DNA from: Patescibacteria group bacterium
GTDB lineage: Bacteria; Patescibacteriota; Microgenomatia; Levybacterales; UBA12049
Direction of reading: 5' to 3'
DNA length: 60,298 nt
NCBI GenBank assembly: GCA_038063415.1
Contig: JBBTVD010000009.1
Span: forward strand, 81,430 to 141,727
The notes under the pieces were generated by a model. The model was not told the origin of the DNA. It did not search any database and saw only the letters and a list, made by a program, of their open reading frames with translations. Made by a program: the position numbers and the translations under genes. Below, piece by piece: positions 13,761 through 58,857 of this stretch (within the stretch, counting starts at the first letter, position 1; the number at the start of each line of letters is the position of its first letter).

Positions 13761-14266
13761 TGAAAAAAGGATTTACGCTTATTGAAATATTGGTCATTAT
13801 TGCTGTGCTTGGAGTACTGGCAAGTGCGGTACTTTTTGTGCTCAATCCTATGGATCAGATACGTAAATCCAATGATGCCAAAAGAAAAGCCAGTCTGGGT
13901 CAAGTACAAAGTGCCTTAGAACTGTATTATCAGGATACAGGACGATATCCAGCTTCTTCTTCGAATTTTCAACTCTATATAAATAACGTAACGATCTCTT
14001 GGGGGAATAGCTGGATGCCTTATATGAGTAAACTACCAACAGATCCGACTTTTGGTAAGACATTTGTCTATTATTCTCCTGCAAGTTCAAATGGACAAAC
14101 GTACTATCTCTATGCCAATTTGGAACGTGGAGCAAAGGATGCACAGGTGTGTAACGCTGGCAATGCTTGTACGAGTATTACCAGTGGTGGTGCAGGTGCC
14201 CCTTCCGCTACAGCGTGTGGTGGGACGTGTAATTATGGTGTTTCCAGTCCAAATACTGTACCATAA
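13760..14266 (+). CDS. type IV pilin-like protein
   Basis: Prepilin leader MKKG|FTLIEILVIIAVLGVLA. Start reset from 13715 to the ATG that overlaps the pilD stop. Confidence 0.75.
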   Translation: MKKGFTLIEILVIIAVLGVLASAVLFVLNPMDQIRKSNDAKRKASLGQVQSALELYYQDTGRYPASSSNFQLYINNVTISWGNSWMPYMSKLPTDPTFGKTFVYYSPASSNGQTYYLYANLERGAKDAQVCNAGNACTSITSGGAGAPSATACGGTCNYGVSSPNTVP

Positions 14267-14275
14267 TACCTAGCT

Positions 14276-14716
14276 ATGAAAAAGAAAAGAAAAGGTTTTT
14301 TGAGAGGATTTACGCTGATTGAGTTACTCGTTGTGATCTCAATCATTGGTGTGTTATCGACCTTTCTGACGGTTAATTTCCTTGGAACGAGAGCTCGTAC
14401 TCGTGATGCTCAGCGAAAAGCAGATATGCAACAAATTCGTTCAGCGATTGAAATTTACCGATCTGATCAAGGAAGTTATCCAACCACACTTCCTGCTTGT
14501 AATAGTGCATTGCGTGTAGGAACGACAACCTATATGCAAAAAGTTCCTTGTGATCCAACAAATACCACACCACTTACCTATCGGTTTACCTCGACCGGAA
14601 CAACGTATACCTTAGCAGCTTGTCTTGAAAATATAAATGATGCACAAAAAGATGTGACGAATGTTACTCCTTGCAACGGAACTTCTAGTTGGTCTTATAC
14701 CCTTACGAATCCATGA
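14276..14716 (+). CDS. GspG/PulG-like pseudopilin
   Basis: Leader ...LRG|FTLIELLVVISIIGVLS, then RARTRDAQRKADMQQIRSAIEIY. Confidence 0.75.
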   Translation: MKKKRKGFLRGFTLIELLVVISIIGVLSTFLTVNFLGTRARTRDAQRKADMQQIRSAIEIYRSDQGSYPTTLPACNSALRVGTTTYMQKVPCDPTNTTPLTYRFTSTGTTYTLAACLENINDAQKDVTNVTPCNGTSSWSYTLTNP

Positions 14717-15174
14717 AGACACTGACGGGATTTACGCTGATTGAATTACTTATCGTTATTGCCACACTCGCTCTTGTGACGACGTTTAGTATTGCTTCAT
14801 ACTCTGACTATCAAAATGCACAAAAAGTTGAAACTTCTGCTTCAGAAGTAGTAACGCTTTTTCAAACTGCAAAATCTCGTGCTCTTTCACAAGTGAAGCC
14901 AACCGTATGCAATGGAAGAGTGCTTGAATCTTATCGGGTAACAATTACACCAGGGGCGCAGAATTATGTATTATCAGTTATTTGTAGTGGTGTTGTTACG
15001 CAGCTTGAAACAAAAAAACTGTCTCAAGATGTTCTCTTTACTACTGGATCAACGACAACTATTACTTTTTCTCTTTTGACAGGTGCCGCGACTTCGGGGA
15101 CAATAAACATAACTGGTTATGGTAAAACAAAAACAATTACTGTTAATACTGTTGGGAATATAGGAGTAAACTAA
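14713..15174 (+). CDS. prepilin-type N-terminal cleavage/methylation domain protein (minor pilin)
   Basis: MKTLTG|FTLIELLIVIATL. ATGA overlap with the upstream stop. Confidence 0.65.
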   Translation: MKTLTGFTLIELLIVIATLALVTTFSIASYSDYQNAQKVETSASEVVTLFQTAKSRALSQVKPTVCNGRVLESYRVTITPGAQNYVLSVICSGVVTQLETKKLSQDVLFTTGSTTTITFSLLTGAATSGTINITGYGKTKTITVNTVGNIGVN

Positions 15175-15189
15175 AAAACTAATATAAGT

Positions 15190-15672
15190 ATGAAAACAAA
15201 CAATCCAAAAATTATTAATCAATCTGGACAAACACTTATTGAGGTACTCGTATCTCTCAGTATTTTGGTTATGATTATGGGTGCTACTGCTATTGCCTTG
15301 ACTAATGCACTTGATAATGCACAATACGTCAAAAACCAGGCAACTGCTACGAAATATGCTCAAGAAGGTATTGAGATAGCTAGGGGTATACGAGATGCCA
15401 ATTACACACAATTCCGCAACTATAGCGGGACGTATTGTCTTGCCAAAGATCAAACTACTTTGGGTGCTCCATCAGCTTCCTGCACAACTGCCAATGTCGA
15501 TCAATTTGTGCGATCGGTAGTCGTTGAACAAACACCAGGATGTGCTACCGATGTAGCAAGAGCAACAATAACGGTAGCTTGGAGAGATGGCAAATGTTCT
15601 GGTGCTACCTACTGCCATACATCACAGCATGTTTCATGTCTTTCGACAGTTAATCCAATATCGGCACCATGA
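15190..15672 (+). CDS. prepilin-type minor pilin (non-canonical +1 Gln)
   Basis: ...NQSG|QTLIEVLVSLSILVMI. Confidence 0.55.
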   Translation: MKTNNPKIINQSGQTLIEVLVSLSILVMIMGATAIALTNALDNAQYVKNQATATKYAQEGIEIARGIRDANYTQFRNYSGTYCLAKDQTTLGAPSASCTTANVDQFVRSVVVEQTPGCATDVARATITVAWRDGKCSGATYCHTSQHVSCLSTVNPISAP

Positions 15673-16193
15673 AAGAAAATAAAATATCATCTGGTTTCAC
15701 CTTGGTTGAGGTGCTGGTTGCGATTAGTATCATCGCAATTATTGGCGTGTTAATTATTTCTGTTTTGACACTTAGTCTACGAGGAAGTAACAAAGCTGAA
15801 GTCTCTTCTGTAGTAAAACAACAAGGGAACACGGTGCTTACGCAAATTGCCAGAAAACTTCGTTACGCAAAGACCTTGGATAATCCTGCCAGCTGTGTGC
15901 CGTCAACTACGGTAGCTTCACTTACCATTACTGATGTCTCAAATACCCAAACGACCTACGCTTGTACGTCGGGAAGTATTACGGTATTATCTGCAAATGG
16001 CGTCCCATTGATTGATACGAATGCAGTTGCTATGAGTAACTGTTCTTTTGTTTGTAGTCAACAAACGCTTCTTGATCCTCCAACGGTACGGATACAATTC
16101 CTACTGACGGCAAAATCTACTAGTCAACTTGCCGAAACACAATCATCACTTCCTTTTCAGACAAGTATTACGCTACGAAACTATAATCGGTAA
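15669..16193 (+). CDS. prepilin-type minor pilin
   Basis: MKENKISSG|FTLVEVLVAISIIAIIG. 4-nt overlap with the upstream gene. Confidence 0.65.
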   Translation: MKENKISSGFTLVEVLVAISIIAIIGVLIISVLTLSLRGSNKAEVSSVVKQQGNTVLTQIARKLRYAKTLDNPASCVPSTTVASLTITDVSNTQTTYACTSGSITVLSANGVPLIDTNAVAMSNCSFVCSQQTLLDPPTVRIQFLLTAKSTSQLAETQSSLPFQTSITLRNYNR

Positions 16194-16272
16194 AGTGATT
16201 TTGTATACATAAGATGCCTTTTGAGACATTGACAGCGATATTCAGAATATGATGTACTAAGAAAGAATAGAT

Positions 16273-16821
16273 ATGAAAAAATTTCTTAGAGTTTCTGCAC
16301 AAAAAGGTTTTACCCTTATTGAACTATTAATTGTTATTGCTATCCTTGGCATTATGTCTGCGGCCTTAATTGCGAGTATTGATCCCCTTGAACAAATTAA
16401 AAAATCTCAAGATGCAGACCTTAAAGAGAAAGCTGTGGAGTTCTTTAATGCAAATGCTCGTTATTACACAAGTAAAGGTGCGATGCCTTGGGCTACTATC
16501 GCGACAGGTGGAGCAAACTGTTATAGTTCAGGCAATACATTAAGTGGTGTTGCAATCAGTGCTTTAACAGGTTGTCTTACTACACTATCGAGTGAAGGCG
16601 AACTCAAAACTTCTTTTTCAAGCGCAACTAACTTAAACCAGGTTTTTGTCAGTAATCCAAGTGCACAGACCGGTTCAACCTCAGATAACGTTGTTTGTTT
16701 CCAGCCAAAGTCTAAATCACAACAAAAAGATGCAAGCACCAAATATAGTATAACAGGAGCTACGCTTACTACCTGTAAATCTGGTGGAGGTTCTGTTGAC
16801 TGCTATTGGTGTGCCTTCTAA
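16273..16821 (+). CDS. type IV pilin (candidate major pilin)
   Basis: ...AQKG|FTLIELLIVIAILGIMSAA, with C-terminal Cys residues. Has its own intergenic region upstream. Confidence 0.7.
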   Translation: MKKFLRVSAQKGFTLIELLIVIAILGIMSAALIASIDPLEQIKKSQDADLKEKAVEFFNANARYYTSKGAMPWATIATGGANCYSSGNTLSGVAISALTGCLTTLSSEGELKTSFSSATNLNQVFVSNPSAQTGSTSDNVVCFQPKSKSQQKDASTKYSITGATLTTCKSGGGSVDCYWCAF

Positions 16822-16886
16822 CGGGAAAAAGTATATCCTCAGTACCTAGTTTATTATTCCTTACAGAGATGATCGCTACCTTTATG

Positions 16887-16915
16887 TTGACACGACTCAT
16901 AGAGGTTGTTACGAT
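16887..16915 (+). promoter_or_regulatory. sigma70-like promoter, TTGACA-17 nt-TACGAT
   Basis: Read directly, upstream of the PilX-like/pilMNO genes. Confidence 0.4.
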
Positions 16916-16938
16916 ACATACAGAAGCAAATTACGACT

Positions 16939-17775
16939 ATGCATGCATCTTTTGATAGACCAATGAATCCACAATTACAAAGTGGGCAAGTTCTTCTGAT
17001 TGTTATCCTCGTGATGGTTGTTGCGCTTACTGTCGGACTTTCAGTTGCCGCAAGAAGTATCACCAATGTACGAATTGCCAATGAGGAAGAGAGTTCTGAG
17101 CGAGCTTTTGCAGCCGCTGAAGCGGGGCTTGAGCGAGCTTTGGTAAGTAATGCAGCTACCACAGGGTCTCTATCAAATAGTGCGCTTTTTGAAACAACGC
17201 TCTCAACACTCTCTGGGCAAGAGTTTCTTTTGCAAGGAGGTACACCTATTCCTCAGGATGATGGTGTTGATCTTTGGCTTTCTACGTATCCTTCGTATAG
17301 TAATCCGTGGAGTGGAAATATAACTATTTATTGGGGTGTTTCAGGAGACGTCTGTAATGCCTCGGCAACCACAAATACTATGCCTGCACTTATGGTTTCG
17401 TTAATAACGGGTACTTCTGCTTTTCCCCGCATAACCTATTATGCTTTTGAGCCGTGTAACGCTCGGGCTGGAAACAATTTTGAAGTGATACCTACCAATG
17501 GAGGGACTATCACGGGCAAAACATTTTTGTATAGACGGACAATTGCCGTAAGCTCGGGTATTGTTGCCCGAATTGTTCCTTTATATGCACCCGCTGTTAT
17601 TGGTGTGCGGGGGTGTGATGGTGCAAATAATAATTGTAATGCACTTCCTACTCAAGGTACATTGATTCAATCGGTTGGTACGTCTGATACAACCAAAAGA
17701 AAAATTGTGAGTTTTCGAGGGTACCCAAAAGTCCCAAGCGAACTCTTTCCATATAATCTTTTTTCACCAAAATGA
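16939..17775 (+). CDS. PilX-like pilus assembly protein (hypothetical)
   Basis: N-terminal QSGQVLLIVILVMVVALTVGLSVAA hydrophobic segment and position before pilM. Start is 16939 or 16963. Confidence 0.4.
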   Translation: MHASFDRPMNPQLQSGQVLLIVILVMVVALTVGLSVAARSITNVRIANEEESSERAFAAAEAGLERALVSNAATTGSLSNSALFETTLSTLSGQEFLLQGGTPIPQDDGVDLWLSTYPSYSNPWSGNITIYWGVSGDVCNASATTNTMPALMVSLITGTSAFPRITYYAFEPCNARAGNNFEVIPTNGGTITGKTFLYRRTIAVSSGIVARIVPLYAPAVIGVRGCDGANNNCNALPTQGTLIQSVGTSDTTKRKIVSFRGYPKVPSELFPYNLFSPK

Positions 17776-18809
17776 AAAGTAATGCATTTGGTCTTGACAT
17801 TGGTACAGCGGGTATAAAACTCGTGTGGTTAGATAATGAAAAAAATGGCTTTGTCTATAACACGTCTTTACTTGGCGTAGCTCCTCGGCAAGGTATGCAA
17901 TCTGAGTCCCCTTTTGATCAGCAAGAAATGGCGCAACTCATTAATAAATTTGTTATAGATGCTAAGATTGGAACCAATAATGTCAATGTCTCACTACCGG
18001 AAAATCAGGTTTTTACAAAAGTCATTGATATGCCAGCCCTTTCGGATAAAGAAGTCTCCGATGCTATTTATTGGGAAGCAGAGCAATACATCCCAGCACC
18101 GTTAGATACGGTTACACTTGATTGGAGTGTCTTACGACGTCCTAAAACTTCAGGTCTTGATGCAAGGATGCAAGTGCTGCTTGTTGCTGCTCCAATTGCT
18201 TTGGTAAAGCGATATCAGTCAATTCTTGAGCTTGCAGGACTTACCGTTATGAGTGTTGAGCCAGAGATTTTGTCAACAATCCGTGGCATCTGGGGGAAGG
18301 GGCAATCACCAACCTGTCTGCTTATAAATATAGGTTCTATGAATACTTCTTTTGCCATTGTTCAAAATGGTGTTATTATTTTTAATTATATTATCGCATT
18401 GGGTGGTGTTGCCTTTACTCGTGCCATTACCGCTGATTTTGGATTTACCTTCCCTCAGGCTGAAGAATATAAGCGGACGTATGGTCTTTCAGACAAAAAC
18501 TTTGGTGGCAAGATTGCCCGAGCAATTGAGCCAATTTTGACTTCAATTGCTACTGAAATAAAAAAAGCGATTGCCTTTTATGCCACAAAATACAAAGGAG
18601 AATCTGCCATTTCACAAATAGTGCTTACTGGAGGGAGTGCTCTGCTTCCCGGAATTGAACTCTATTTTGCTGACCAGATTGGAATTGAGACAGTGATTGG
18701 TAATCCGTGGAGTATGCTTTCGATTGCCAATGTCCCCAAAGAAGTTCTTGCTCGCGGACCTGAATATACTGTTTCTGTAGGACTCGCCTTAAAAGAATAT
18801 GAGCAATAA
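17772..18809 (+). CDS. pilM: type IV pilus assembly ATPase-fold protein PilM
   Basis: 345 aa with actin-like GLDIGTAGIKLV N-terminus and LTGGSALLPG. Confidence 0.8.
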   Translation: MKSNAFGLDIGTAGIKLVWLDNEKNGFVYNTSLLGVAPRQGMQSESPFDQQEMAQLINKFVIDAKIGTNNVNVSLPENQVFTKVIDMPALSDKEVSDAIYWEAEQYIPAPLDTVTLDWSVLRRPKTSGLDARMQVLLVAAPIALVKRYQSILELAGLTVMSVEPEILSTIRGIWGKGQSPTCLLINIGSMNTSFAIVQNGVIIFNYIIALGGVAFTRAITADFGFTFPQAEEYKRTYGLSDKNFGGKIARAIEPILTSIATEIKKAIAFYATKYKGESAISQIVLTGGSALLPGIELYFADQIGIETVIGNPWSMLSIANVPKEVLARGPEYTVSVGLALKEYEQ

Positions 18810-19350: not shown

Positions 19351-20094
19351 ATGGAATATAAACGAGTTTTTTGGGGACAAAAAAGTTTGCGCTTTTGGTA
19401 TCTCCGCTACAAAGATTCACCTTTGTATGCAGGAGCAGTTTTTGGTGTTATTAGTACGGTTTCGCTCATTTTGCTTATCTTTCTTGTTATTCCACAGATC
19501 CAGAGTTGGTTTTCGCTTCGGGAACAAGTTGTCCAAATGGAACAAAAGATTGCGGTATTGAGGAACAATACAACCTATTTACAATCAGTAGATCGAGCAC
19601 AAGTACAGAAGCAATTGGATATTTCTCTTGCAGCATTACCTTGGGATAAACAAGTAGATAGCATTTTACAAGCAATTAATAATGCCTCGATTACTTCAGG
19701 AGTCGGTTTAGGTGATTTTGCTTTCCAAATTGGCAATGTAAGTACTCTCGCGGCCAGTGTCACTTCCGATCCTGAAACACGAGGACTTAACACGACACGG
19801 GTTAATATCAGTGTAACCGGGAGTCTTGCAAGAGTACAAAAATTCCTTGAGACACTACAAAAAAGCTTACCACTTTCAGAAGTAATTAGCGCGGAAGGAA
19901 CGAGTCAATCAACAAATATTCTTATGCAGTTTTATCAAAAGCCACTTCCCTCGCTCTCTTTTAAGCCAGATAAGCCGATCGTTCCTGTCTCAGCGCAAGA
20001 TACCGCGTTGCTTAATCAATTATCAGAATGGAAAGTGCCAATAGTACCAGATCAAGTTATCGAGTCTTCAAACGCAGCTATTCCGCTTTTTTGA
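19351..20094 (+). CDS. PilO-like bitopic pilus assembly protein
   Basis: 247 aa with a single TM, directly abutting the PilN-like gene. Confidence 0.4.
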   Translation: MEYKRVFWGQKSLRFWYLRYKDSPLYAGAVFGVISTVSLILLIFLVIPQIQSWFSLREQVVQMEQKIAVLRNNTTYLQSVDRAQVQKQLDISLAALPWDKQVDSILQAINNASITSGVGLGDFAFQIGNVSTLAASVTSDPETRGLNTTRVNISVTGSLARVQKFLETLQKSLPLSEVISAEGTSQSTNILMQFYQKPLPSLSFKPDKPIVPVSAQDTALLNQLSEWKVPIVPDQVIESSNAAIPLF

Positions 20095-20836
20095 GGAGGT
20101 CTGGACGGACTGTTTTCGTTATAAGACGTGATTGTTCTTTTTTCCAAGCGGCAATTTCTTTATGGTTGCCTCCGCGTAAAACTTCAGGTACTTCCATTCC
20201 GTTATACGCTGCAGGTTTGGTATAGTGAGGATATTCTAAATACGTTTCAGTTTCTTTTTCTCCGGACAGAGAGAAAGATTCATTATCCGTTGCTCCCTGC
20301 GGAAGTACTCCTGGGATAAGCCGAGTTACGGCATCAGTTATCAGCATGGTTGGGATTTCTCCACCAGTTAAGACAAAGTCTCCTATCGAAACCTCTTCAT
20401 CAATATATGCCCCAATTCGTGCATCAATGCCTTCATAATGCCCACAAATAAGAATCAAATGGTCTAAGCTCGCATATGCTTTTGCTGTTGGTTGTTCAAA
20501 AGGTGTTCCAGTTGCACTCATGAGGACTACCCTCGTCATTCTGGCTTGTCCAGAATCAGTGTTACTTAAGATTCTGGATGCGCTCGGTTCTCGCTTACCA
20601 GAATGACGCTGCTTTGCATACTCAATTGCCTGATGTACGACATCAACCTTAAGTACCATCCCAACTCCCCCGCCGTAGGGTGTATCATCGACCATTTTGT
20701 GTGAGCCTACACCGAAATCTCTTATATTTATCAATTCGATTTCTATTGCTCCTTTTTCTTGTGCGCGTTTCACGATCGAATGATCAAATGGTCCGACAAA
20801 CATTTCAGGAAAAAGTGTTAAGATACTTATTTTCAT
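20078..20836 (-). CDS. trmD: tRNA (guanine37-N1)-methyltransferase, carrying an internal repeat-derived segment
   Basis: LTLFPEMF, DDTPYGGG and CGHYEGIDARI. Residues HSGKREPSASRILSNTDSGQARMT are encoded by repeat copy B. Confidence 0.9.
   Translation of the reverse strand: MKISILTLFPEMFVGPFDHSIVKRAQEKGAIEIELINIRDFGVGSHKMVDDTPYGGGVGMVLKVDVVHQAIEYAKQRHSGKREPSASRILSNTDSGQARMTRVVLMSATGTPFEQPTAKAYASLDHLILICGHYEGIDARIGAYIDEEVSIGDFVLTGGEIPTMLITDAVTRLIPGVLPQGATDNESFSLSGEKETETYLEYPHYTKPAAYNGMEVPEVLRGGNHKEIAAWKKEQSRLITKTVRPDLLKKAE
20535..20607. repeat. hairpin-pair palindromic repeat, copy B (inside trmD)
   Basis: gtc-attctggCTTGTccagaat...attctggATGCGCTCGGTTCTCGCTTAccagaat-gac. Confidence 0.8.
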
Positions 20837-24037: not shown

Positions 24038-24127
24038 GTCATGCTGAACTCGTTTCAGCATCCCAAAAAAGATTCTGGACAAGCCAGAATGACGGCTTAC
24101 AAGATCCTGAAACAAGTTCAGGATGAC
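24038..24127. repeat. hairpin repeat, copy C (one full unit plus an extra hairpin) in the glnA leader
   Basis: gtc-atgctgaaCTCGtttcagcat...attctggACAAGccagaat-gac, then atcctgaAACAAGttcaggat-gac. The last ATG is the annotated glnA start. Confidence 0.75.
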
Positions 24128-27160: not shown

Positions 27161-27223
27161 GTCTCCTGTCCAGAATCCGCCATATGATCCTGGGTGTGCT
27201 CGTACCTCGCTTACCAGGATGAC
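27161..27223. repeat. hairpin repeat, copy E (left arm degraded)
   Basis: ...tgtccagaat...atcctggGTGTGCTCGTACCTCGCTTAccaggat-gac, between convergent genes. Confidence 0.55.
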
Positions 27224-30212: not shown

Positions 30213-30270
30213 GTCATCCCGGACTTTATCCGGGATCTACTTCTTGGATTCCTGCCTTCGCAGGAATGAC
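30213..30270. repeat. hairpin-pair repeat, copy F
   Basis: gtc-atcccggACTTTATccgggat...attcctgCCTTCGcaggaat-gac, ending 4 nt from the tyrS stop. Confidence 0.8.
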
Positions 30271-34377: not shown

Positions 34378-34452
34378 GTCATCCTGGTAAGCGAACCCCG
34401 ATTAGCGCATCCAGGATCTGATTCTGGGAAAGTCGGTGCTTTCCAGAATGAC
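34378..34452. repeat. hairpin-pair repeat, copy G (inverted orientation)
   Basis: gtc-atcctggTAAGCGAACCCCGATTAGCGCATccaggat...attctggGAAAGTCGGTGCTTTccagaat-gac, starting 2 nt after the PBP stop. Confidence 0.8.
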
Positions 34453-35171: not shown

Positions 35172-37298
35172 TTATTCCTTCAATCGTGCATTGTATTTTT
35201 CATGCAGTATTTTAAGCATGTTTTTTCGTATCTCCCCTACTTCCTCATCTGTCAGATTCTTTTCATAGCTTTGATAAATAATATGAAAGGTTCGGGTATC
35301 CTGATATTTGTCCAAAAGCGTAACAGACGCAATCAGTGGATTTTGCTTTGTAATTGTTTCAATAATAGTTCCTGTCAGTACGTCAGATGGAGCAATTAGT
35401 GCAAGATCTTCCACAATCGGTGGGAATTTACTGGTCGGTTTATAGATTTTTTTCAATGTGGCATGCTCAAGTAATCGACGAAAGTCTAGTTCAAAGCTAA
35501 TAAGATTCGAGTTTTCGATAGTGATCGTTCCAACAGACGTCATTCTGGCAAGTGAAGCGCGTCCAGAATCGATTCTGGAGTCCTCACGTTGTTTGTCCCC
35601 AGAATGACGAAGAGAAATTTCCGCACCATCGTTAGTTGCTGTATAGACTGCTTCATTGATACCAAGCTCGCGGAAAAGCTGCTCTATAATTCCTTTTACT
35701 TCATAAAAAGAGACCTTATCTTTTTTGACCACGCCGGCAAGCGTAAGTTTTTCTTCCGGCAGCGCATGTGCTTTTTTGACGTAGACATTTGCGATTTCAA
35801 AAATATGGACGGTATCATATTTTTTATTTTCTTTTATTACTTTGAGCAAGCTTGGGGTAAGGGTTCTTCGCATCACGACAAATTCTTCAGAAAGTGGGTT
35901 TTCAATCGTAACCGCATCTTCAATCTTGCCGTCATACAGTTCTTTGGGAACCATTGGGTAGGTATAGACTTCGGTGAAGCCCCAGTATTTGAGCATATCT
36001 TTGACCCTATCTTCCCAGAAGAATTCATTCTTTCCATAGGCTGTTGGTGCTGCTTGTTCTACTGCTGGAAGCTTATCCGGGATGTTTTGATAGCCATAAA
36101 TACGGGCTATTTCTTCAATAACGTCTTCTGGAATGGTAATATCTTTTGCCCGAAAAGATGGAGGAGTAACGGTCAAAATGTTTTTTGTCATGCTGGCTTG
36201 TCCAGCATCTTTTTTAGATTCTGGACGCGTTCTTTTATCGCTTGCCAGAATGACGTGAGATGAAATTTTTGTCGCAAATCCCAGACTTTGCATAATATGT
36301 GCAGATTCATTCACCGTAACCGGTACTCCCATAACGGATGCAATTTGTTCCTCCGTTACTGAGACGGTTTGGATCTGAGGCTTGTTTGAATATGTATCAA
36401 TAATCTCTGAAATGATCTTTCCGTCAGCTACTTCTTCAAAAAGTTTGACACCATAGGCAAATGCATCGGTTGCAAGTTCTGGATCAACTCCCTTTTCGTT
36501 AAGTACTGCGGCTTCTGAACGAATTCCCAGACCCATAGAAGTCTTTCTAATTTGCTGTGCATCATTATTGTCAATAAAGAAAAGAATCCGTTTGGTTTCG
36601 TTGGTTACCACACTGTTTTCAAGTCCCATGATAGCAAGTAAATCAATGATTCTTCCCGAATCATCTACTGCGATAATATCTCCATCTCGGAGGGTATGTA
36701 TTTTCTTATCGAGGGTTTCTATTTTTTCTCCTTTTTTGGCTCCTCGTATCGTCAGGCTTTTGGTTGCAAGCCGATCGTAGTCAAAGACGTGTGTTGGATG
36801 ACCGATCACCCGCATGACATAATTGGTAACATCGATAAGGTTGCTGAGACTTCTGATATCCGTTGCTTCCAAACGGTTTTTAATTAGCTCAGGAGAAGGC
36901 TTCACCGTTACTTCCATTACCACTGCCATAACTCGGTTAGTTAGTTTTTCGTTGGTATGAATCGTTAGCTTCACGTTGTCATCCCCGACTCCGATCGGGG
37001 ATCCAGTTCTCTTCTGGATTCCTGCCTTCGCAGGAATGACAGATAATGCTGGTGGAGTAAAGGTTGCCGAGATACCATTTTGGTTGAGTACTGCGGCTGT
37101 CTCCCGTGCCAGACCAAGGATGGACATCAGATCAGGTCTATTGGTCGTAATTTCAATATCATAGACATAGTCTTCGTTATACTTCTCAAGGCGTTCGACC
37201 GAGACACTTGCGAGTGACAAAAGCTCCGCAATTTTTTGCGGTTTTGCGGTTGTTTTGACGTATTCTTTGAGCCAAGAGTCTAAAATTTTGATATTCAT
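35172..37298 (-). CDS. pheT: phenylalanyl-tRNA synthetase beta subunit, carrying three internal repeat-derived segments
   Basis: 708 aa with SWLKEYV N-terminus, TNRPDLMSILGLARE (B3/4) and a C-terminal anticodon-binding-like domain. Repeat copies H, I and J lie in frame. Confidence 0.9.
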   Translation of the reverse strand: MNIKILDSWLKEYVKTTAKPQKIAELLSLASVSVERLEKYNEDYVYDIEITTNRPDLMSILGLARETAAVLNQNGISATFTPPALSVIPAKAGIQKRTGSPIGVGDDNVKLTIHTNEKLTNRVMAVVMEVTVKPSPELIKNRLEATDIRSLSNLIDVTNYVMRVIGHPTHVFDYDRLATKSLTIRGAKKGEKIETLDKKIHTLRDGDIIAVDDSGRIIDLLAIMGLENSVVTNETKRILFFIDNNDAQQIRKTSMGLGIRSEAAVLNEKGVDPELATDAFAYGVKLFEEVADGKIISEIIDTYSNKPQIQTVSVTEEQIASVMGVPVTVNESAHIMQSLGFATKISSHVILASDKRTRPESKKDAGQASMTKNILTVTPPSFRAKDITIPEDVIEEIARIYGYQNIPDKLPAVEQAAPTAYGKNEFFWEDRVKDMLKYWGFTEVYTYPMVPKELYDGKIEDAVTIENPLSEEFVVMRRTLTPSLLKVIKENKKYDTVHIFEIANVYVKKAHALPEEKLTLAGVVKKDKVSFYEVKGIIEQLFRELGINEAVYTATNDGAEISLRHSGDKQREDSRIDSGRASLARMTSVGTITIENSNLISFELDFRRLLEHATLKKIYKPTSKFPPIVEDLALIAPSDVLTGTIIETITKQNPLIASVTLLDKYQDTRTFHIIYQSYEKNLTDEEVGEIRKNMLKILHEKYNARLKE
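35539..35607. repeat. hairpin-pair repeat, copy H (inside pheT)
   Basis: gtc-attctggCAAGTGAAGCGCGTccagaat-cg-attctgg...ccagaat-gac. Encodes RHSGDKQREDSRIDSGRASLARMT. Confidence 0.8.
36187..36254. repeat. hairpin-pair repeat, copy I (inside pheT)
   Basis: gtc-atgctggCTTGTccagcat...attctggACGCGTTCTTTTATCGCTTGccagaat-gac. Encodes VILASDKRTRPESKKDAGQASMT. Confidence 0.8.
36978..37040. repeat. hairpin-pair repeat, copy J (inside pheT)
   Basis: gtc-atccccgACTCCGATcggggat...attcctgCCTTCGcaggaat-gac. Encodes SVIPAKAGIQKRTGSPIGVGDD. Confidence 0.8.
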
Positions 37299-37302
37299 AG
37301 TA

Positions 37303-37725
37303 TTATCTTAATAATCGTAAATTACCTGTTAGGCTGGTCACTAGTTTTGTTGGTCCTGCAAAAGCAATTCCTAAGAATGTTAACTCATCCAGCGTTTTGT
37401 CTTTGAGCTTTTCTTTATAATCAGCATACTCTTTTGATTTTTGAGCAACATCAGTAACGTCCACTGTGAATAAATCATCTTTATATTGCAAACTTTTCTT
37501 TTTTAATTCTCTGAGTCCATCCGTATTTTTTTTCAAGATGGGTACAGGTTGGCCAGTAAGTCCTGCGTGAACAATACCCTCTTTGTCTGTCAGGTCTTCA
37601 CCAATAAAATCTTTGACCTCTTTTCCCAAGCTTAACGCAAGCACGGCCGCTGTATTTGCTATCAGACCAAGCGGAAGTGCTTCATCAATAACCATAACGA
37701 TTTTAAAATCTTTTGTTGTTTGCAT
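37303..37725 (-). CDS. DUF2000 domain protein (PTH2-like fold family)
   Basis: 140 aa. KIVMVIDEALPLGLIANTAAVLALSLG matches my recollection of DUF2000. Sits between pheS and pheT. Confidence 0.55.
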   Translation of the reverse strand: MQTTKDFKIVMVIDEALPLGLIANTAAVLALSLGKEVKDFIGEDLTDKEGIVHAGLTGQPVPILKKNTDGLRELKKKSLQYKDDLFTVDVTDVAQKSKEYADYKEKLKDKTLDELTFLGIAFAGPTKLVTSLTGNLRLLR

Positions 37726-37733
37726 AATAATTA

Positions 37734-38786
37734 TTAGAACTGTTTGAGAAAATCTAAATCATTCCCATACAGTGTTCGTAAATCGTCAATTTGAATACCC
37801 TCTTTCATCATGAGTACCCGTTCTACTCCCCAACCGGAGGCAAAACCTGAGTATTTTGTGGGATCAATGCCTCCTGCACGAAGGACATTTGGATGGATCA
37901 TTCCCGCTCCTCCAAGCTCAAGCCATCCTTCTTTACACAAACGGCACTTTTCGTTGTTTGTAAGCCATCCTGTGCCATTACAGACCGCACATGAGACGTC
38001 TGTCTCAAAGGATGGTTCAGTAAATCGGAAATCGTACGGACGGATACGTGATTTTCTGTTGGGGCCAAAGTACGACTTTACAAAGTATTCAAGCGTTCCT
38101 TTGAGATGGGCAATGGAGATATTCTTATCAATAACCATCGTTTCGAACTGGTGAAAGACTGGGGTGTGTGAGACATCCATCTGACGGCGGTAAACTTTGG
38201 CAATATTGAGCATTCTAATTGGAAGTTCAGATTGCTCCATATGCTGGACTTGACCGGTTGAGGTATGGACATTGAGCATCATGCGGCCCTTTGCTTTGTT
38301 TGGTGTGGCGTCGATATAAAACGTTTCCAGATCATCGCGTGCTGGATGGTTCTCTGGGAAGTTAAGCGCAGTGAAGTTATACCAATCCCAGCTGATCTCT
38401 GGATAGCGTACTCTCTGTAGGCCAATCCGACTAAAAATCTCAGTAATTTCCCTGATTGCTTGCGTAGTCAGATGGAGACTGCCGAGTGGAGGTTTGAGAC
38501 CAGGTTCAGTAACATCAATTTTTTGACGATTTTGTTTGCTTTTCGAGTTTAATTCTTTTTTCCTCTGTGCAACAGTATCTTCGATGATCATCTTTACTTC
38601 ATTTGCCAGTCTTCCGACAGATGGCTTTTCTTCCTTACTCAGTGTGGGAAGCTGTCTCAGGAGTGTCGTGAGTGACCCACTTCTTCCCATAAGCTGCAAG
38701 GATAATTCTTCCAGTTCCTTAAGAGAACCAGCCTGTGAGATGAGATAGATAGCGTTATTTTTGAGTGAAAGAAGTTCTTCTTGCAT
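37734..38786 (-). CDS. pheS: phenylalanyl-tRNA synthetase alpha subunit
   Basis: 350 aa with FRFTEPSFE and GWLELGGAGMIHPNVL class II motifs. Confidence 0.9.
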   Translation of the reverse strand: MQEELLSLKNNAIYLISQAGSLKELEELSLQLMGRSGSLTTLLRQLPTLSKEEKPSVGRLANEVKMIIEDTVAQRKKELNSKSKQNRQKIDVTEPGLKPPLGSLHLTTQAIREITEIFSRIGLQRVRYPEISWDWYNFTALNFPENHPARDDLETFYIDATPNKAKGRMMLNVHTSTGQVQHMEQSELPIRMLNIAKVYRRQMDVSHTPVFHQFETMVIDKNISIAHLKGTLEYFVKSYFGPNRKSRIRPYDFRFTEPSFETDVSCAVCNGTGWLTNNEKCRLCKEGWLELGGAGMIHPNVLRAGGIDPTKYSGFASGWGVERVLMMKEGIQIDDLRTLYGNDLDFLKQF

Positions 38787-38812
38787 ATTACATTATATTT
38801 GCGCATTCCTGC

Positions 38813-38876
38813 GTCATTCTGGCTTGTCCAGAATCAGATGATTAGATCCTGGATGCGTTTCACTTACCAGGATGAC
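38813..38876. repeat. hairpin-pair repeat, copy K (best-preserved unit)
   Basis: gtc-attctggCTTGTccagaat...atcctggATGCGTTTCACTTAccaggat-gac, between the aminotransferase stop and the pheS start. Confidence 0.85.
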
Positions 38877-38889
38877 GTTAATAAGTACA

Positions 38890-40047
38890 TTATAATACAA
38901 ATCGTTTGATTCTTGTTACTGCTTCACGTAAATCTGCCTCTGATGCAGCAAAGCTCATACGTACATATCCCGGAGCAAGAAATGCTTCACCAGGTACGAC
39001 AGCTACTTTTTCTTGTTCAAGGAGGGCTTCACACCATGCAATAGAGGTGGGATACTTTTTGTTTAAGACTTTTTCGATAGAAATGAAGGCGTAGAACGCT
39101 CCCTCTGCTGGTGTCACACCCAGTCCTGGGATTGCCTGTAACAGTGGGAACAACATATTTCTTCTTTTGGTAAATTCCTCAACATATCTCTGTGGCTCAT
39201 CTTGGTTGCCGTTGAGTGCTTCAATGCCTGCCATTTGTGCAATAGACGAGGTGCAGCTTACCATTTGGCTTTGTAAGGCTTTCATGCCATTCATTATTTC
39301 TTGTGGCCCTGCCGCATAGCCAATCCTCCATCCTGTCATCGAGTACGTTTTCGAAAATCCGTTGGATGTAATCGTCCGTGCTTTGATATCCCCCCCCAGT
39401 GAAGCTATTGATGTATGTGGAGCAGTATGAACAATCTTTTCATAAATTTCATCGCTCAGTATCCAAAAGTCATGCTTTACGGCTAATTCTGCAATTTTTT
39501 CTAGCTCATCTCTGTCAATCATTGCACCAGTTGGATTAGATGGGGTATTGAGAAGGAGAGCTTTTGTTCTTTTGGTTATTGCTTGTGCCACGTCAGCTGC
39601 CGTGAGTTTAAATGGAGGACGCAAGGAAATAAAGACTGGTATTCCTCCAGCGAGTTTTACCTGTTCAGAAAACGTTGTCCAGGTAGGCGTTGCGATAAGT
39701 ACTTCGTCACCTGGGTTAATCAACACTTGAAAGGCATTATACAGTACTTCTTTACTACTTGGTCCGACAACAATTTGTGAAGGTGTATAGTCAATATGAT
39801 TATCTGTAGCAAGCTTCTTGGCAATTACTTCTCGAAGTGGAAGAATTCCTTCAGGAGCAGTATAGTAGGTGAAATTATCGTTAATTGCTTTAATTGCTGC
39901 ATCTTTGATATTTTGTGGTGTTGGAAAATCCGGTTCTCCGACTCCTGCATTAATGATTGGGATGCCCTTTTGCTTTAATGCCTTTGCTCTGACATCAACT
40001 GCTACGGTCGCAGAAGGTTCTAATTGTAGTATTCGTTTTGCTAGCAT
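38890..40047 (-). CDS. class I pyridoxal-phosphate aminotransferase (aspartate/aromatic)
   Basis: 385 aa with SKTYSMTGWRIGY (PLP lysine motif). Confidence 0.85.
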   Translation of the reverse strand: MLAKRILQLEPSATVAVDVRAKALKQKGIPIINAGVGEPDFPTPQNIKDAAIKAINDNFTYYTAPEGILPLREVIAKKLATDNHIDYTPSQIVVGPSSKEVLYNAFQVLINPGDEVLIATPTWTTFSEQVKLAGGIPVFISLRPPFKLTAADVAQAITKRTKALLLNTPSNPTGAMIDRDELEKIAELAVKHDFWILSDEIYEKIVHTAPHTSIASLGGDIKARTITSNGFSKTYSMTGWRIGYAAGPQEIMNGMKALQSQMVSCTSSIAQMAGIEALNGNQDEPQRYVEEFTKRRNMLFPLLQAIPGLGVTPAEGAFYAFISIEKVLNKKYPTSIAWCEALLEQEKVAVVPGEAFLAPGYVRMSFAASEADLREAVTRIKRFVL

Positions 40048-40056
40048 ATTTTGTGA

Positions 40057-41427
40057 TTATATCCTCTTTACCAGGAGAAAACTAGTATAATTCTCCGTGA
40101 GATCTTGCAAGTTTTCTTCAATTTTTTGTAAATCATAGATATCCGCAAGAATTTTACTCCCCAACGTTGCGATATGTTTGGGTAACTTCCCTTCGGCAAT
40201 ATGTTTGGCGACAAGGGCTGTATCAATAAGCTCTCCTTCCCCTGACGTTAATTCTAAATGAGGATATTTTTTCGCAAGGGTTTCTTTGCATTGTGCTAGT
40301 ACCTGTGGATGGCACATGATCGTTGTAACTTCCTCAAAAGGGATATCTTTTCGAGTCATTAACGTATGGGAGATAATGATCGCAAATTCCTCGATAATTG
40401 CAAATTTATGCCTGGCCATTGCCTCAACACTTTCCATAACGATGCCTCCTGTAGCATTGTGCATTGCAAATACTCCTTGGTCGATATTCCCTTCATGAAG
40501 TTCCCGTAGGACATTTTCTGTTGTGTAAAGATAGGTAATTTCTGCATTGACGATGTTATGTTGCTTAAGATAGTCTTCGATAGCTTCTTCATTAAAACTT
40601 CCTATGCCACCTTGGATACCTATGGTGAGTTTAGCTTTGTCGATACGTTCTGGAATCAGTTTATTAAAGAGTCCATCATAAATCTCTCCAAACTTTACCC
40701 GCATTTGCTTGGTGTAGGGATTATAATGCTGCATATCGGTAAAGAGTTCCCAGGTGTCATTGCATACCTGTTCTTTGACTTGCAGTAATCGTTTGGTACC
40801 CAGTGAGTCAATTGGTGTTTCTTTTAGCTTATACTCTCCGAGCATTCTTCCAATAAAGTGTGTCAGCCCAAGTGAATTTGCGGAAAGATGATCATGTTCT
40901 TCTGCTGACATTTCGATTACTTGGAGCTGTTTTGCCACAAAGTATTCTTTCCAAAAAGCATAGGTTCTCTCATTTGTACGGAATTGCTCGATGATGATCG
41001 GAAGCTCCTCAAATCCATCTTTGCTACTATCTGGACCAAACATTGGATGGGTGAGGAGTGCCTGTGTTTTTTTATTTTTTAGTATGTGAGTAAACACTTT
41101 TTTGGGATGGCACTTTACCGTAAGGACATCAATCAGTACATGATGATCAGTAATGTATGTCTCATGTTCTTTGAGGACTTCTTCGAAAGCAGACATAGGG
41201 ACAGCATAAAAGATAGTATCATTTTGATAGGCAGCGGTGAGACTATCGGTGAAGTTTATTTTAGATATGTCATGCTGAACTTGTTTCAGCATCTTTTCTT
41301 TTGATGCTTGAGTTCCCGAAACAAGTTCGGGATGACGAGTATAAATGGTAATCTCAAAATCATCTTGCAACAGACGAACCAACGTCTGTCCAAATCTTCC
41401 ATAACCGATGATTGTTATCTTTTTCAT
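40057..41427 (-). CDS. fused prephenate dehydrogenase (TyrA-like N-terminus) / prephenate dehydratase (PheA-like C-terminus), with an internal repeat-derived segment
   Basis: Rossmann KITIIGYGRFGQT. C-terminal half LTIGIQGGIGSFNEEA ... ENYTSFLLV (TRF-like). Repeat copy L encodes RHPELVSGTQASKEKMLKQVQHD. Confidence 0.7.
   Translation of the reverse strand: MKKITIIGYGRFGQTLVRLLQDDFEITIYTRHPELVSGTQASKEKMLKQVQHDISKINFTDSLTAAYQNDTIFYAVPMSAFEEVLKEHETYITDHHVLIDVLTVKCHPKKVFTHILKNKKTQALLTHPMFGPDSSKDGFEELPIIIEQFRTNERTYAFWKEYFVAKQLQVIEMSAEEHDHLSANSLGLTHFIGRMLGEYKLKETPIDSLGTKRLLQVKEQVCNDTWELFTDMQHYNPYTKQMRVKFGEIYDGLFNKLIPERIDKAKLTIGIQGGIGSFNEEAIEDYLKQHNIVNAEITYLYTTENVLRELHEGNIDQGVFAMHNATGGIVMESVEAMARHKFAIIEEFAIIISHTLMTRKDIPFEEVTTIMCHPQVLAQCKETLAKKYPHLELTSGEGELIDTALVAKHIAEGKLPKHIATLGSKILADIYDLQKIEENLQDLTENYTSFLLVKRI
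41269..41336. repeat. hairpin-pair repeat, copy L (inside the tyrA-pheA fusion)
   Basis: gtc-atgctgaACTTGTttcagcat...tcccgaaACAAGttcggga-tgac. Confidence 0.8.
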
Positions 41428-41723: not shown

Positions 41724-41807
41724 GTCATTCTGGCTTGTCCACTCCGATTTAATCGGAGTCCAGAATCTATAATAAGATCCTGGATGCGCTTCGCTTACCA
41801 GGATGAC
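41724..41807. repeat. hairpin-pair repeat, copy M, with a nested extra hairpin
   Basis: As copy K, but the loop of hairpin 1 contains actccgaTTTAAtcggagt. Confidence 0.8.
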
Positions 41808-43671: not shown

Positions 43672-43847
43672 GTCATCCTGACCGAAGTGGAAGGATCTCT
43701 TTTCTGTCATTCCCGCGAAGGCGGGAATCTAATTATATTGATCCCCGGGTCAAGCCCGAGGATGACAGTTCTGTTTATGAGATTCTTCGACTACACGTTC
43801 TCCCGATTAAATCGAGATTCCTTCCGCTCAGAATGACATGGAACTTT
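43672..43847. repeat. composite cluster of about three hairpin-repeat units, copy N
   Basis: gtcatcctgaccgaagtggaaggat; gtc-attcccgcGAAGgcgggaat...atccccgggTCAAGcccgaggat-gac; ...ctcccgattaaatcgag...cagaatgac. Confidence 0.75.
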
Positions 43848-57111: not shown

Positions 57112-57190
57112 CCGTATAAGTCGTAATCTCTTATTAGAAATTGAAATTGAAGTATGTTATCATTAATTCACTCAATTGTATTCCTCAATT

Positions 57191-58234
57191 ATGAAAAAGT
57201 CTAATCTAAATATAGAAAATAAAGATAATTATAAATTCACTTTTATCGATTTGTTTGCTGGAATAGGCGGAACGAGACTTGGCTTTAAAGAAGCAGGTGG
57301 GAAATGTGTTTTCACATCCGAATGGGATGAATCTTGTAAAAAGACCTACGAAGCAAACTTTGGCGAAAACCCTCATGGCGATATCACGAAAATCAAAGCA
57401 GAAGAGATTCCTGAATTCGATATTCTTGTAGCTGGTTTTCCCTGTCAACCTTTTAGTTCAATCGGGAAGCGCCAAGGGTTTATGCATGCAACTCAGGGTA
57501 CTCTCTTCTATGATATTCTGCGCATTCTAAGAGATAAAAAAAGTCATCTCGGTCCAAAAGCTTTTCTGTTAGAAAATGTTCAAGGCTTAACGACACATGA
57601 TAAAGGCAATACGCTTAATACTATCCGTAAATCGTTAGATGAATTAGGCTATAAAGTATTCTATCAAGTTTTAGATTCGGCAAATTTTGGAGTCCCTCAG
57701 CATAGAAAGCGTATTTATATTGTAGGTTTTAGAAAAGATCTATTTGGTGAAGATATCGAGTTTAGATACCCGCAAACTAATAACAGAGAGTCTTATATAA
57801 ACGAATTTCTCGAAGAGAATGTGGATGGGTATTCTATCTCAAAGCGTCTACAAGAAACGTATTTATTTAAGCTCGATGATGGGAGACCACATCTTGTTAA
57901 TAAGGAGTCTAGGATTCAGATAAAAACACTTGTTGCGAGTTATCATAAAATTCAACGGTTAACGGGAACATTTGTTGAAGATGGGCCGACAGGAATACGA
58001 TTATTTACTCAGAATGAATGTAAGGCCATTATGGGTTTTCCAAAAGGTTTCAAAATTCCAGTATCACGTACGCAAATGTATAGACAAATGGGAAATTCTG
58101 TCGCAGTTCCTGTTGTTGAGGCGGTAGCCAAAGAAATGGTAAAAATCTTAGAGAAACAATCTATTAAAAACCCAAGTAACATGGTAAAATCTAAACTGGC
58201 TCAAATGAGTTTAAATGAATTTACACAAATATGA
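57191..58234 (+). CDS. DNA (cytosine-5)-methyltransferase
   Basis: Motif I FIDLFAGIGG, IV GFPCQPFS, VI ENVQGL, VIII QHRKRIYIVG, X GNSVAVPV. ATG at 57191 preferred over TTG at 57176. Confidence 0.9.
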   Translation: MKKSNLNIENKDNYKFTFIDLFAGIGGTRLGFKEAGGKCVFTSEWDESCKKTYEANFGENPHGDITKIKAEEIPEFDILVAGFPCQPFSSIGKRQGFMHATQGTLFYDILRILRDKKSHLGPKAFLLENVQGLTTHDKGNTLNTIRKSLDELGYKVFYQVLDSANFGVPQHRKRIYIVGFRKDLFGEDIEFRYPQTNNRESYINEFLEENVDGYSISKRLQETYLFKLDDGRPHLVNKESRIQIKTLVASYHKIQRLTGTFVEDGPTGIRLFTQNECKAIMGFPKGFKIPVSRTQMYRQMGNSVAVPVVEAVAKEMVKILEKQSIKNPSNMVKSKLAQMSLNEFTQI

Positions 58235-58857
58235 CAGATATTATCGTACCAACTGATGAATTAACCCCAGAAGAGAAGCAAACGGCAAAGCAAGTTATAA
58301 AAAAATTATTACCCGACATTCGCTCAGATTCAAAATTAAAGCCTCACGAGTTTATCAAAAAATATTGGAAAAATTATCAATCAAATTTTCAAAGCAATCA
58401 AAATATTAATGGCAAAGTACTCGAAGAACTAATTGCTATTACTTTAATACGGAAAAATATTCTGCCTTTCTATATGCAAGCACAGGTAGCATTTATCTCA
58501 TATATTAATTATGATTTCATTATCTATTCAAATGATATTGGACCAATTTCTATTAGTTCAAAAACTAGCCTACGTGAAAGATGGAAGCAAGCAGATCTTG
58601 AAGCAGTAGCTTTAAAATATATTCATCGTAAATCTAAGTCTTTTGTAGTAACATTAGATACTGAAGCCGTCAGGAGAAGACGTATTGATCCCAGTGCATC
58701 TATGGGTATAGACGAATTTATTCTTGCTGATACTGAGGAGTATGATAAAATGCTAGAAACAATTAAGCAGCATGATTTAAGCTTATCTCCAACAGTGGAA
58801 GTGGTAACTTCAAATTTTGTTATAACAGCTGAAAACTACCAAAACCGCTACGAATAA
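58231..58857 (+). CDS. putative type II restriction endonuclease
   Basis: 208 aa with ATGA overlap to the methyltransferase. Possible PD-(D/E)xK-like YDFIIY...ISISSKTSLRERWKQ. Confidence 0.45.
   Translation: MTDIIVPTDELTPEEKQTAKQVIKKLLPDIRSDSKLKPHEFIKKYWKNYQSNFQSNQNINGKVLEELIAITLIRKNILPFYMQAQVAFISYINYDFIIYSNDIGPISISSKTSLRERWKQADLEAVALKYIHRKSKSFVVTLDTEAVRRRRIDPSASMGIDEFILADTEEYDKMLETIKQHDLSLSPTVEVVTSNFVITAENYQNRYE

Follow-up and report, generated by a model that had tools for sequence, protein, structure and literature searches.

The window analysed here is a 60-kb stretch of DNA (60,298 nt, positions 81,430 to 141,727 of contig JBBTVD010000009.1, GenBank assembly GCA_038063415.1) from a groundwater member of the Levybacteria, within the Candidate Phyla Radiation (CPR). 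We identified in it a pheT gene, encoding the beta subunit of phenylalanyl-tRNA synthetase (PheRS), that contains three palindromic repeat elements, here called H, I and J (Table 1). As the original prediction, made from the sequence alone, had stated, the three lie within an unbroken open reading frame (ORF) of 708 amino acids (aa), about 58 aa beyond the typical Levybacteria ortholog. The predicted protein retains the PheRS beta domains recognized by Pfam (B3_4, B5, the catalytic-like module tRNA_synthFbeta and FDX-ACB) and all 60 columns that are invariant across 120 orthologs, and the gene lies in a conserved pheS-DUF2000-pheT arrangement. The nearest PheT proteins are those of Levybacteria (CPR, Microgenomates group), mostly 647-660 aa in length; in a set of species-representative genomes the nearest relative of the window reaches at best 58% identity. 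The B2 (tRNA-binding OB-fold) domain is absent from this PheT, as from the Levybacteria orthologs, at about residues 40-45: residues 5-44 align to residues 3-42 of S. haemolyticus PheT, and residues 40 onward to 158 onward. The missing B2 domain accounts for a PheT of ~650 aa, compared with ~790 aa in model bacteria.

The common form of H, I and J is GTCAT-hairpin-ATC...GAT-hairpin-ATGAC. Read on the minus strand, H gives RHSGDKQREDSRIDSGRASLARMT at aa 564-587, within a beta-hairpin of the catalytic-like module (site 3); I gives (H)VILASDKRTRPESKKDAGQASMT at aa 348-371, within the B5 domain (site 2); and J, in the B1-B3 linker (site 1), gives SVIPAKAGIQKRTGSPIGVGDD, also written (S)VIPAKAGIQKRTGSPIGVGDD, at aa 86-107, where it encodes SVIPAKAGIQ. 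Each element adds about 22 aa. Translation in the frame of the gene yields the same peptides as were first given; the first-given element boundaries stand for all starts and for the ends of I (36254) and J (37040), whereas H ends at 35608 and not at 35607. All stems are intact, with 0-1 mismatch; the a-type module of I is a variant (a') with a compensatory stem change, and the spacer of J holds complementary CCA/TGG tails. Folded as single-stranded DNA, the elements have z scores of -4.96 (H), -7.39 (I) and -5.55 (J), in each case with the native sequence better than all of 200 shuffles. Tryptic peptides predicted across the insert junctions include GSPIGVGDDNVK, DAGQASMTK and MTSVGTITIENSNLISFELDFR.

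The elements are read in different frames, as originally proposed. H is entered as c|GT CAT TCT (R H S), and both I and J as GTC ATT (V I); the exit is ATG ACx (M T) for H and I, and GAT GAC (D D) for J. The accompanying claim of different orientations stands for the shared long-loop hairpin type, which in gene sense is the 5' arm in I but the 3' arm in H; it fails for the elements as copies of one unit, as they represent three different pairings of hairpin types (in plus-strand order a'+b in I, e+c in J and b+x in H). These different pairings argue for separate events. The pairing of I recurs at 20535, 38813 and 41724, that of J at 30213-30270 (intergenic) and that of H at 34378. An independent assembly from another replicate of a Hainich groundwater sample (ENA ERZ1292660, locus L205, coverage ~4) is 100% identical over window positions 35724-39687 and reproduces J and I. 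At window position 35724 it switches (L205:3965-4153) to unrelated GC-rich sequence, which looks like a chimeric join 115 nt before H.

Table 1. Positions of pheT, its repeat elements, further in-frame repeats of the window and hairpin-bracketed GIY-YIG genes on other contigs (L numbers are our locus labels).
Feature	Position	Strand of gene	Length	Description
pheT, phenylalanyl-tRNA synthetase beta subunit	35172-37298	minus	708 aa	Supported by ORF list, Pfam, ortholog lengths and AlphaFold2 model
Element H	35539-35608	minus	70 nt	Two abutting inverted modules, tags outward: b 35539-35570 and x 35571-35608
Element I	36187-36254	minus	68 nt	a variant 36187-36209, 7-nt spacer, long-loop b 36217-36254
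Element J	36978-37040	minus	63 nt (exactly 21 codons)	e 36978-37003, 13-nt spacer, c 37017-37040
a+b pair	20535-20607	minus		In frame in trmD (20078-20836); reads RHSGKREPSASRILSNTDSGQARMT; fold z = -7.43
d+d pair	41269-41336	minus		In frame in prephenate dehydrogenase/dehydratase gene (40057-41427); reads RHPELVSGTQASKEKMLKQVQHD
Hairpin pair	41724-41807			In frame in 5' part of chorismate mutase ORF, ahead of CM_2 domain
GIY-YIG unit	L086:3821-4163			
GIY-YIG unit	L098:852-1199			
GIY-YIG unit	L118:1785-2149			
GIY-YIG unit	L181:8433-8793			
GIY-YIG unit	L206:1449-1802			In a Levybacteria genome, GCA_001782685.1

These modules form a repeat family that is dense in the window. We defined a strict module by GTC, a stem that begins with AT, is 7 bp or longer and includes three or more G/C, a loop of between 3 and 30 nt, and a C thereafter; the window contains 25, compared with a mean of 0.2 and a maximum of 2 in 50 shuffles. 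Their stems are 7-10 bp long with 0-1 mismatch, several being only 7 bp. About 15 elements in the 60 kb are built by combining a few hairpin types. Modules a (GTCATTCTGGCTTGTCCAGAATC), c (GTCATTCCTGCGAAGGCAGGAATC), d (GTCATSCTGAACTYGTTTCAGSATC) and e (GTCATCCCCGACTCCGATCGGGGATC) have loops within 4-6 nt; b combines the stem of a with a long loop (TAAGCGA...GCGCAT), and x (GTCATTCTGGGGA...ACTCCAGAATC) is likewise long-looped, the range for b and x being 14-23 nt. C follows all strict modules, with ...ATCCAG ending the two modules of J and CAG, CTA or CGA the others. Of 14 complete elements, 13 have C or T immediately before GTC, with a purine in the mirror position after ...GAC; nearly all copies have a pyrimidine before GTCAT and a purine after ATGAC.

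Nine of the elements are intergenic, though the window is 93% coding. The other six lie within ORFs (three in pheT and one each in trmD, a prephenate dehydrogenase/dehydratase gene and a chorismate mutase ORF), and all six are in frame and without stops. The elements are open in 2.2 of 6 frames, compared with 2.3 of 6 for random pieces of the window. As the elements are open no more often than random pieces, the copies inside ORFs are survivors of selection, and we rejected an adaptation of the elements towards many open frames. The copy in trmD, whose tRNA_m1G_MT Pfam match is broken into two stretches, demonstrates that in-frame behaviour is not confined to pheT. The insert in the prephenate dehydrogenase/dehydratase aligns as a loop 19 aa longer than that of the ortholog in L082. 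The copy in the chorismate mutase ORF may lie upstream of the true start codon.

Comparison of the window protein with its 120 closest PheT proteins, aligned, revealed that 104-110 of the 120 lack an insert at any given site. At site 1 the usual loop of 17-19 aa is found in 100 orthologs and an insert of at least 7 aa in 16; at site 2 the usual loop is 13 aa (110 orthologs, 10 with insert), and at site 3 it is 22-24 aa (104 orthologs, 10 with insert), with a short loop at the place of H in 110. Most orthologs have a short loop where the window protein has a repeat-encoded peptide, which supports the original prediction of lineage-specific insertion; the flanks of H, I and J align on both sides to orthologous PheT sequence. 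Insertions of at least 6 aa are nearly confined to the three sites, and only the window protein has inserts at all three. The longer loops of the orthologs mostly hold similar peptides (VILNSFQDL...RNDK, VIPAKAGI, RHSGEE...GQARMT and VILASDE...GQARMT). In the DNA of L006, L011, L013, L014 and L033 the inserts are hairpin pairs or triplets, often of other types.

The distribution of these inserts suggests independent gains. On a neighbour-joining tree built with the three insert regions left out, parsimony requires at least 15, 9 and 9 state changes at sites 1, 2 and 3 for 16, 10 and 10 carriers, and the insert is missing from relatives that are 88-91% identical to a carrier. At 86% nucleotide identity, the L081 and L082 genes differ by a 78-nt insertion composed of a 63-nt x+a pair and ~15 bases. 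In L083 compared with L084 the element replaced part of the loop, and the boundaries are therefore ambiguous. A recombination test gave no indication of imported segments, as the window protein is no more identical to other carriers around the sites than elsewhere; identity is in fact lowest there (25-45%, vs 53-57% overall). Given the scattered carriers and the different hairpin types, we conclude that these permissive, poorly conserved loops have repeatedly gained inserts independently, as had been proposed for the three copies in the window.

Other repeat types are also found at these places: inserts at site 3 of L007, site 1 of P0028 and site 3 of P0064 and P0078 include SSPFAREGQDE, from a CCTCGCCTTTTGCGAGAG hairpin, and SPSPLAGEGRGEG, so the loops accept more than one repeat family. 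At PheT residues ~411-424 (window about 36027-36068) the sequence varies and model confidence is lower, but, unlike at the three hot spots, none of the 120 orthologs has an insertion; structural constraint may explain this, or the stretch may not be a target.

The 120-sequence alignment served to build an AlphaFold2 model, whose mean predicted local distance difference test (pLDDT) score is 88.5 and which resembles bacterial PheRS beta structures (template modelling score 0.72-0.76). Values below 50 are confined to residues 92-105, 353-367 and 574-582, each stretch lying inside one insert (J, I and H, respectively), which is where the original prediction had placed added loops. The alignment to S. 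haemolyticus PheT (2rhs_B) skips residues 348-372 of the query, between residues 448 and 449 of that chain, identifying I as a clean addition at one hairpin turn of B5. H lies between two strands of the catalytic-like module. From the model, it is plausible that the inserts are tolerated as surface loops.

A candidate source of the hairpin pairs was identified on other contigs. An exact search with the a module matched at least 120 metagenome contigs; among the matches listed, none overlaps the window, and there are 316 modules in 718 kb, including 95 pairs, 19 of them embedded in long open frames. Each GIY-YIG gene of Table 1 (94-99 aa, PF01541), four of them on the listed contigs and one in L206, lies between a b or x module and an a module whose tags point outward, and in L086, L098 and L206 (the last a named Levybacteria metagenome-assembled genome) the TGA stop of the gene is supplied by the ATGAC tag of the a module. 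The bracketing types match those in I (a'+b), in H (b+x) and in the x+a inserts of L013, L033 and L081. This architecture resembles that of SsnA, a 94-aa single-domain GIY-YIG nuclease whose gene is typically bracketed by its motifs in the manner of an insertion sequence in many phyla, and which binds and cuts the Neisseria NTS hairpin, CGTCATTCCCGCGMAVGCGGGAATCYRG, in single-stranded DNA only (Chenal et al. 2025, PMC11893778). Tyr17 and Glu64 of the CPR proteins correspond to the positions that were mutated in SsnA. The protein family comprises >2,400 clusters, including Levybacteria and Woykebacteria entries; the CPR protein matches PF01541 only in Pfam and nothing in NCBIfam, and its nearest solved structures are UPF0213 proteins (E = 0.0014). 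Small GIY-YIG genes also occur near pheT in L028 and L031; they have no flanking hairpins and are uninformative either way.

Given these analyses, we propose, with a probability of roughly 0.8, that H, I and J are separate insertions into permissive PheT loops of non-coding hairpin pairs of the superfamily of CGTC-tagged repetitive extragenic palindromes (REPs; Di Nocera, De Gregorio and Rocco 2013, PMC3733652), likely derived from GIY-YIG units. Each element, two inverted hairpins with (C/T)GTC tags outward, would have landed separately in pheT, in poorly conserved loops of variable length (the B1-B3 linker, a hairpin turn of B5 and another of the catalytic-like module). The insertions would persist because, as landed, they contained no stop codon and added a multiple of three bases, whereas insertions elsewhere or in other frames would be lost by selection; the enzyme would thus carry three extra hydrophilic loops of 21-24 residues. 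[quoted passage not shown]

Several observations weigh against this proposal. Translation of the inserts is predicted from the reading frame and their surface exposure from the model, in which the low pLDDT is partly an effect of alignment depth, to be expected where few aligned sequences cover the inserts. The lengths of H and I (70 and 68 nt) are not multiples of three, so that extra bases or later indels must be assumed. No direct repeats flank any of the 15 copies in the window, and neither a clean junction nor a target-site duplication was found in comparisons of filled and empty sites, the L081 insertion included. At site 2 the window and L014 have a common b+a' pairing, orientation and frame, so shared ancestry is possible there. 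H lies outside the region covered by L205. With regard to the source, 24 of the 25 modules fail the literal form of the published degenerate pattern for Ssn-related motifs (SRM), in stem composition, loop length or tail. Neither a motif scan in six frames nor a Pfam search of 28 ORFs turned up a transposase gene in the window, whether GIY-YIG, HUH or other, and transposition by Ssn-type nucleases, for all their IS-like architecture, has never been demonstrated (PMC11893778). For these last two reasons we infer, rather than observe, that the pairs are gene-less derivatives of active hairpin-GIY-YIG nuclease-hairpin mobile units in CPR bacteria, with the nuclease as putative mobiliser; we offer this part tentatively, at somewhat less than even odds.

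The recurrence of the sites might instead reflect the insertion machinery, which could choose its target by the sequence or structure of pheT DNA, so that selection would not be the only cause. We consider this unlikely. The clustering of insertions at three sites, the lack of any in the variable, lower-confidence stretch at residues ~411-424, and the pyrimidine to the left and purine to the right of nearly all copies would all be accommodated; yet the flanks hold no motif beyond Y|...|R, and the codon positions used within a site vary by several residues between species. The sites are also the least conserved parts of the alignment, as selection alone predicts.

A second alternative, which we regard as improbable, is that the inserts are old: an ancestral Levybacteria pheT would have had repeat-derived loops at the three sites that most lineages later lost precisely, with hairpin types swapped by conversion with copies elsewhere in the genome. 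The scattering of carriers over the tree and the close relatives without inserts argue against such a history, as do the short loops of most orthologs at each site, even though the same three sites are used in many species. It would account for the agreement of the window and L014 at site 2, which extends to a GCTGG/CCAGC stem variant, and for degenerate remnants such as that at site 1 of L069. However, inserts at the same site in different species consist of different hairpin types at slightly shifted codon positions, and the intact stems of H, I and J fit recent arrival.

We give very little credence to the idea that the elements are untranslated, being removed from the mRNA or skipped, or that pheT is a pseudogene with another PheRS beta serving in its place. 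CPR bacteria have unusual insertions in their rRNA genes, and the elements form strong hairpins. However, all six copies inside ORFs keep the frame without stops, though the elements are open in only about two of six frames; of the expectations considered, read-through is the only one that gives such a pattern. The retention of every invariant column, a model corresponding to a complete PheRS beta and the conserved gene arrangement likewise argue against a pseudogene, and in vivo expression is cited for R. conorii proteins that carry Rickettsia palindromic element (RPE) 1 (PMC3733652). An assembly artefact, by repeat-induced misjoins or chimeric reads in a low-coverage metagenome, can be set aside as barely credible despite the chimeric end of L205 and the tendency of repeats to be misassembled, as J and I recur base for base in that independent assembly, all three elements keep the frame between flanks that align to orthologous PheT, and analogous inserts occur in many unrelated assemblies.

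Among the intergenic copies, those at 34378-34452, 27187-27223, 38813-38876 and 24038-24127 abut gene ends. One intergenic copy lies between convergent genes and begins 2 nt past the stop codon of PBP1A; recG is followed by a solo module, another copy is located just upstream of pheS, and a three-module cluster overlaps the start of glnA. A role of gene-end copies as terminators or at mRNA ends is possible. A scan of the whole window at Rfam gathering thresholds identified tRNA-Val only, so no described RNA family covers the elements. At 41724-41766 an a-type hairpin has a small hairpin nested in its loop (CTCCGATTTAATCGGAG), and an a-type hairpin at site 2 of L014 (about 1040-1100) likewise holds a nested hairpin (TCGCCTCGCTGAAGCGAGAGCGA); hairpins seem to insert into hairpins.

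The window also has a C5 cytosine DNA methyltransferase gene; the ORF that comes next overlaps it and weakly matches BsaWI-type restriction endonucleases (57176-58857), and the two probably form a type II restriction-modification pair. CCWGG or TCTGG-like sites are present in many hairpin stems. A type IV pilus set is encoded at 106-2387 and 12918-18809, including a PilT-like ATPase, PilC, a prepilin peptidase, several pseudopilins and PilM. Two direct-repeat families, D1 and D2, were rejected as mobile repeats, as they are coding segments for a shared prepilin leader and N-terminal helix.

The finding indicates that palindromic repeats read through in essential genes are not peculiar to Rickettsia. 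Such repeats are dense in free-living or episymbiotic groundwater CPR bacteria, with a hairpin almost identical to the Neisseria NTS. The PheT loops, hit independently many times in Levybacteria, provide a natural map of tolerance for ~20 extra residues, and could serve as a natural system in which to separate target choice from selection. The correspondence between the pair types and those bracketing GIY-YIG genes gives concrete support to the hypothesis that these nucleases spread repeats. If the pairs are indeed gene-less derivatives of nuclease units, an Ssn-type single-strand nuclease would be the long-sought mobiliser of CGTC REPs and of the short Rickettsia palindromic elements. Repeat-encoded peptides (VIPAKAGI..., RHSGE..., ...GQARMT) lengthen proteins, give rise to spurious ORFs and fragment CPR metagenome contigs, and annotation pipelines ought to recognise them.

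The elements share features with several known systems. With bacterial MITEs (Correia, ERIC, Nezha, QMITE) they share small size, inverted repeats at the ends (GTCATYC.../...GRATGAC), a non-coding origin and occasional in-frame fusion to host genes. Unlike in MITEs, no target-site duplication is seen, and structured hairpins take the place of terminal inverted repeats bound by a transposase. Coxiella QMITE2 was rejected as a relative, as it carries a GTAG REP. REPINs and their RAYT genes (Bertels and Rainey 2011; Nunvar et al. 2010) offer a parallel in that two inverted hairpins form a non-autonomous element tied to a single-copy enzyme gene flanked by them; they differ in their GTAG tag, in their IS200/IS605-type tyrosine (HUH) transposase and in being essentially extragenic. 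In the window the tag is (C/T)GTC, and the scanned ORFs include no Y1_Tnp match.

The resemblance to the NTS/Ssn system is closer for one hairpin type. The c module of J (tGTCATTCCTGCGAAGGCAGGAATCCAG) agrees with the NTS consensus in 25 of 28 positions, and two of its three mismatches form a compensatory pair; for the module at 43706-43733 the agreement is 26 of 28. Such a match is limited to the c type. The SRM pattern has one literal match in the window, at 36977-37006 (the e module of J), compared with 0.12 in simulated sequence, and since it fits a single module we relied on module anatomy and on the NTS consensus. The hairpin-bracketed genes of 94-99 aa on related CPR contigs are arranged like NTS-ssnA-NTS. 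In contrast, only 2% of NTS are intragenic in N. meningitidis, most modules here fall outside the SRM pattern, and such a nuclease gene was not found in the window.

The elements correspond most fully to CGTC-tagged REPs, of which families CGTC-1 to CGTC-4 have been described (PMC3733652). These have a CGTC or TGTC (or CCTC) tag, an 8-9 bp stem whose first pairs are almost always A-T and T-A, a loop of 4-5 nt with exceptions in a few species, and a short CCA tail. They frequently form inverted dimers, often of unlike units, they are found after genes or in frame inside them, including tRNA synthetase genes of several species, and they have no dedicated transposase (PMC3733652). CGTC-1 units encode, according to the frame, the peptides VIPAKAGI, SFPRKRES, CHSRESGNP and DSRFRGND, the first being given for R. 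conorii, M. aeruginosavorus and C. chlorochromatii (PMC3733652 and its supplement). The window elements have the (C/T)GTC tag, the A-T/T-A start of the stem, loops of 4-6 nt (a, c, d and e), a CCA-like tail, a predominance of inverted and often unlike dimers and the same placement after or in frame inside genes, tRNA synthetase genes included; J encodes the identical peptide VIPAKAGI, the CGTC-1 coding signature. They differ in that the host belongs to the CPR (Patescibacteria), outside the phyla of the 2013 list, that stems are often 7 bp rather than 8-9 bp, and that the loops of b and x are 14-23 nt rather than 4-5 nt. Neither a gene with three insertions nor repeated occupation of the same loops in different species was reported for the published repeats.

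The original prediction likened the three copies to Rickettsia palindromic elements (Ogata et al. 2000, 2002; reviewed in PMC10969869), which lie in frame in housekeeping genes and are read through. The resemblance has proved apt, as the elements are palindromic repeats in frame in coding genes and absent from orthologs. RPE-1 differs in being 100-150 bp long with a conserved peptide, whereas the elements here are 63-70 nt pairs of short hairpins read in several frames. The intragenic R. conorii repeats RPE-4 and RPE-6, however, are themselves CGTC REPs (PMC3733652), and because the window elements have the defining anatomy of this superfamily, the link is literal kinship and not analogy. The earlier statement that such behaviour was uncharacterised for this repeat family thus does not extend to the family overall; for the CPR, literature searches (encoded peptides; MITEs and palindromic elements in CPR/Patescibacteria) returned no description of such repeats. 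Overall, the finding is one of in-frame CGTC REP insertion, ordinary in kind and new in its host group, and it goes beyond the descriptions in the papers cited here in the recurrent PheT hot spots and in the match of the pair types to the termini of GIY-YIG genes.

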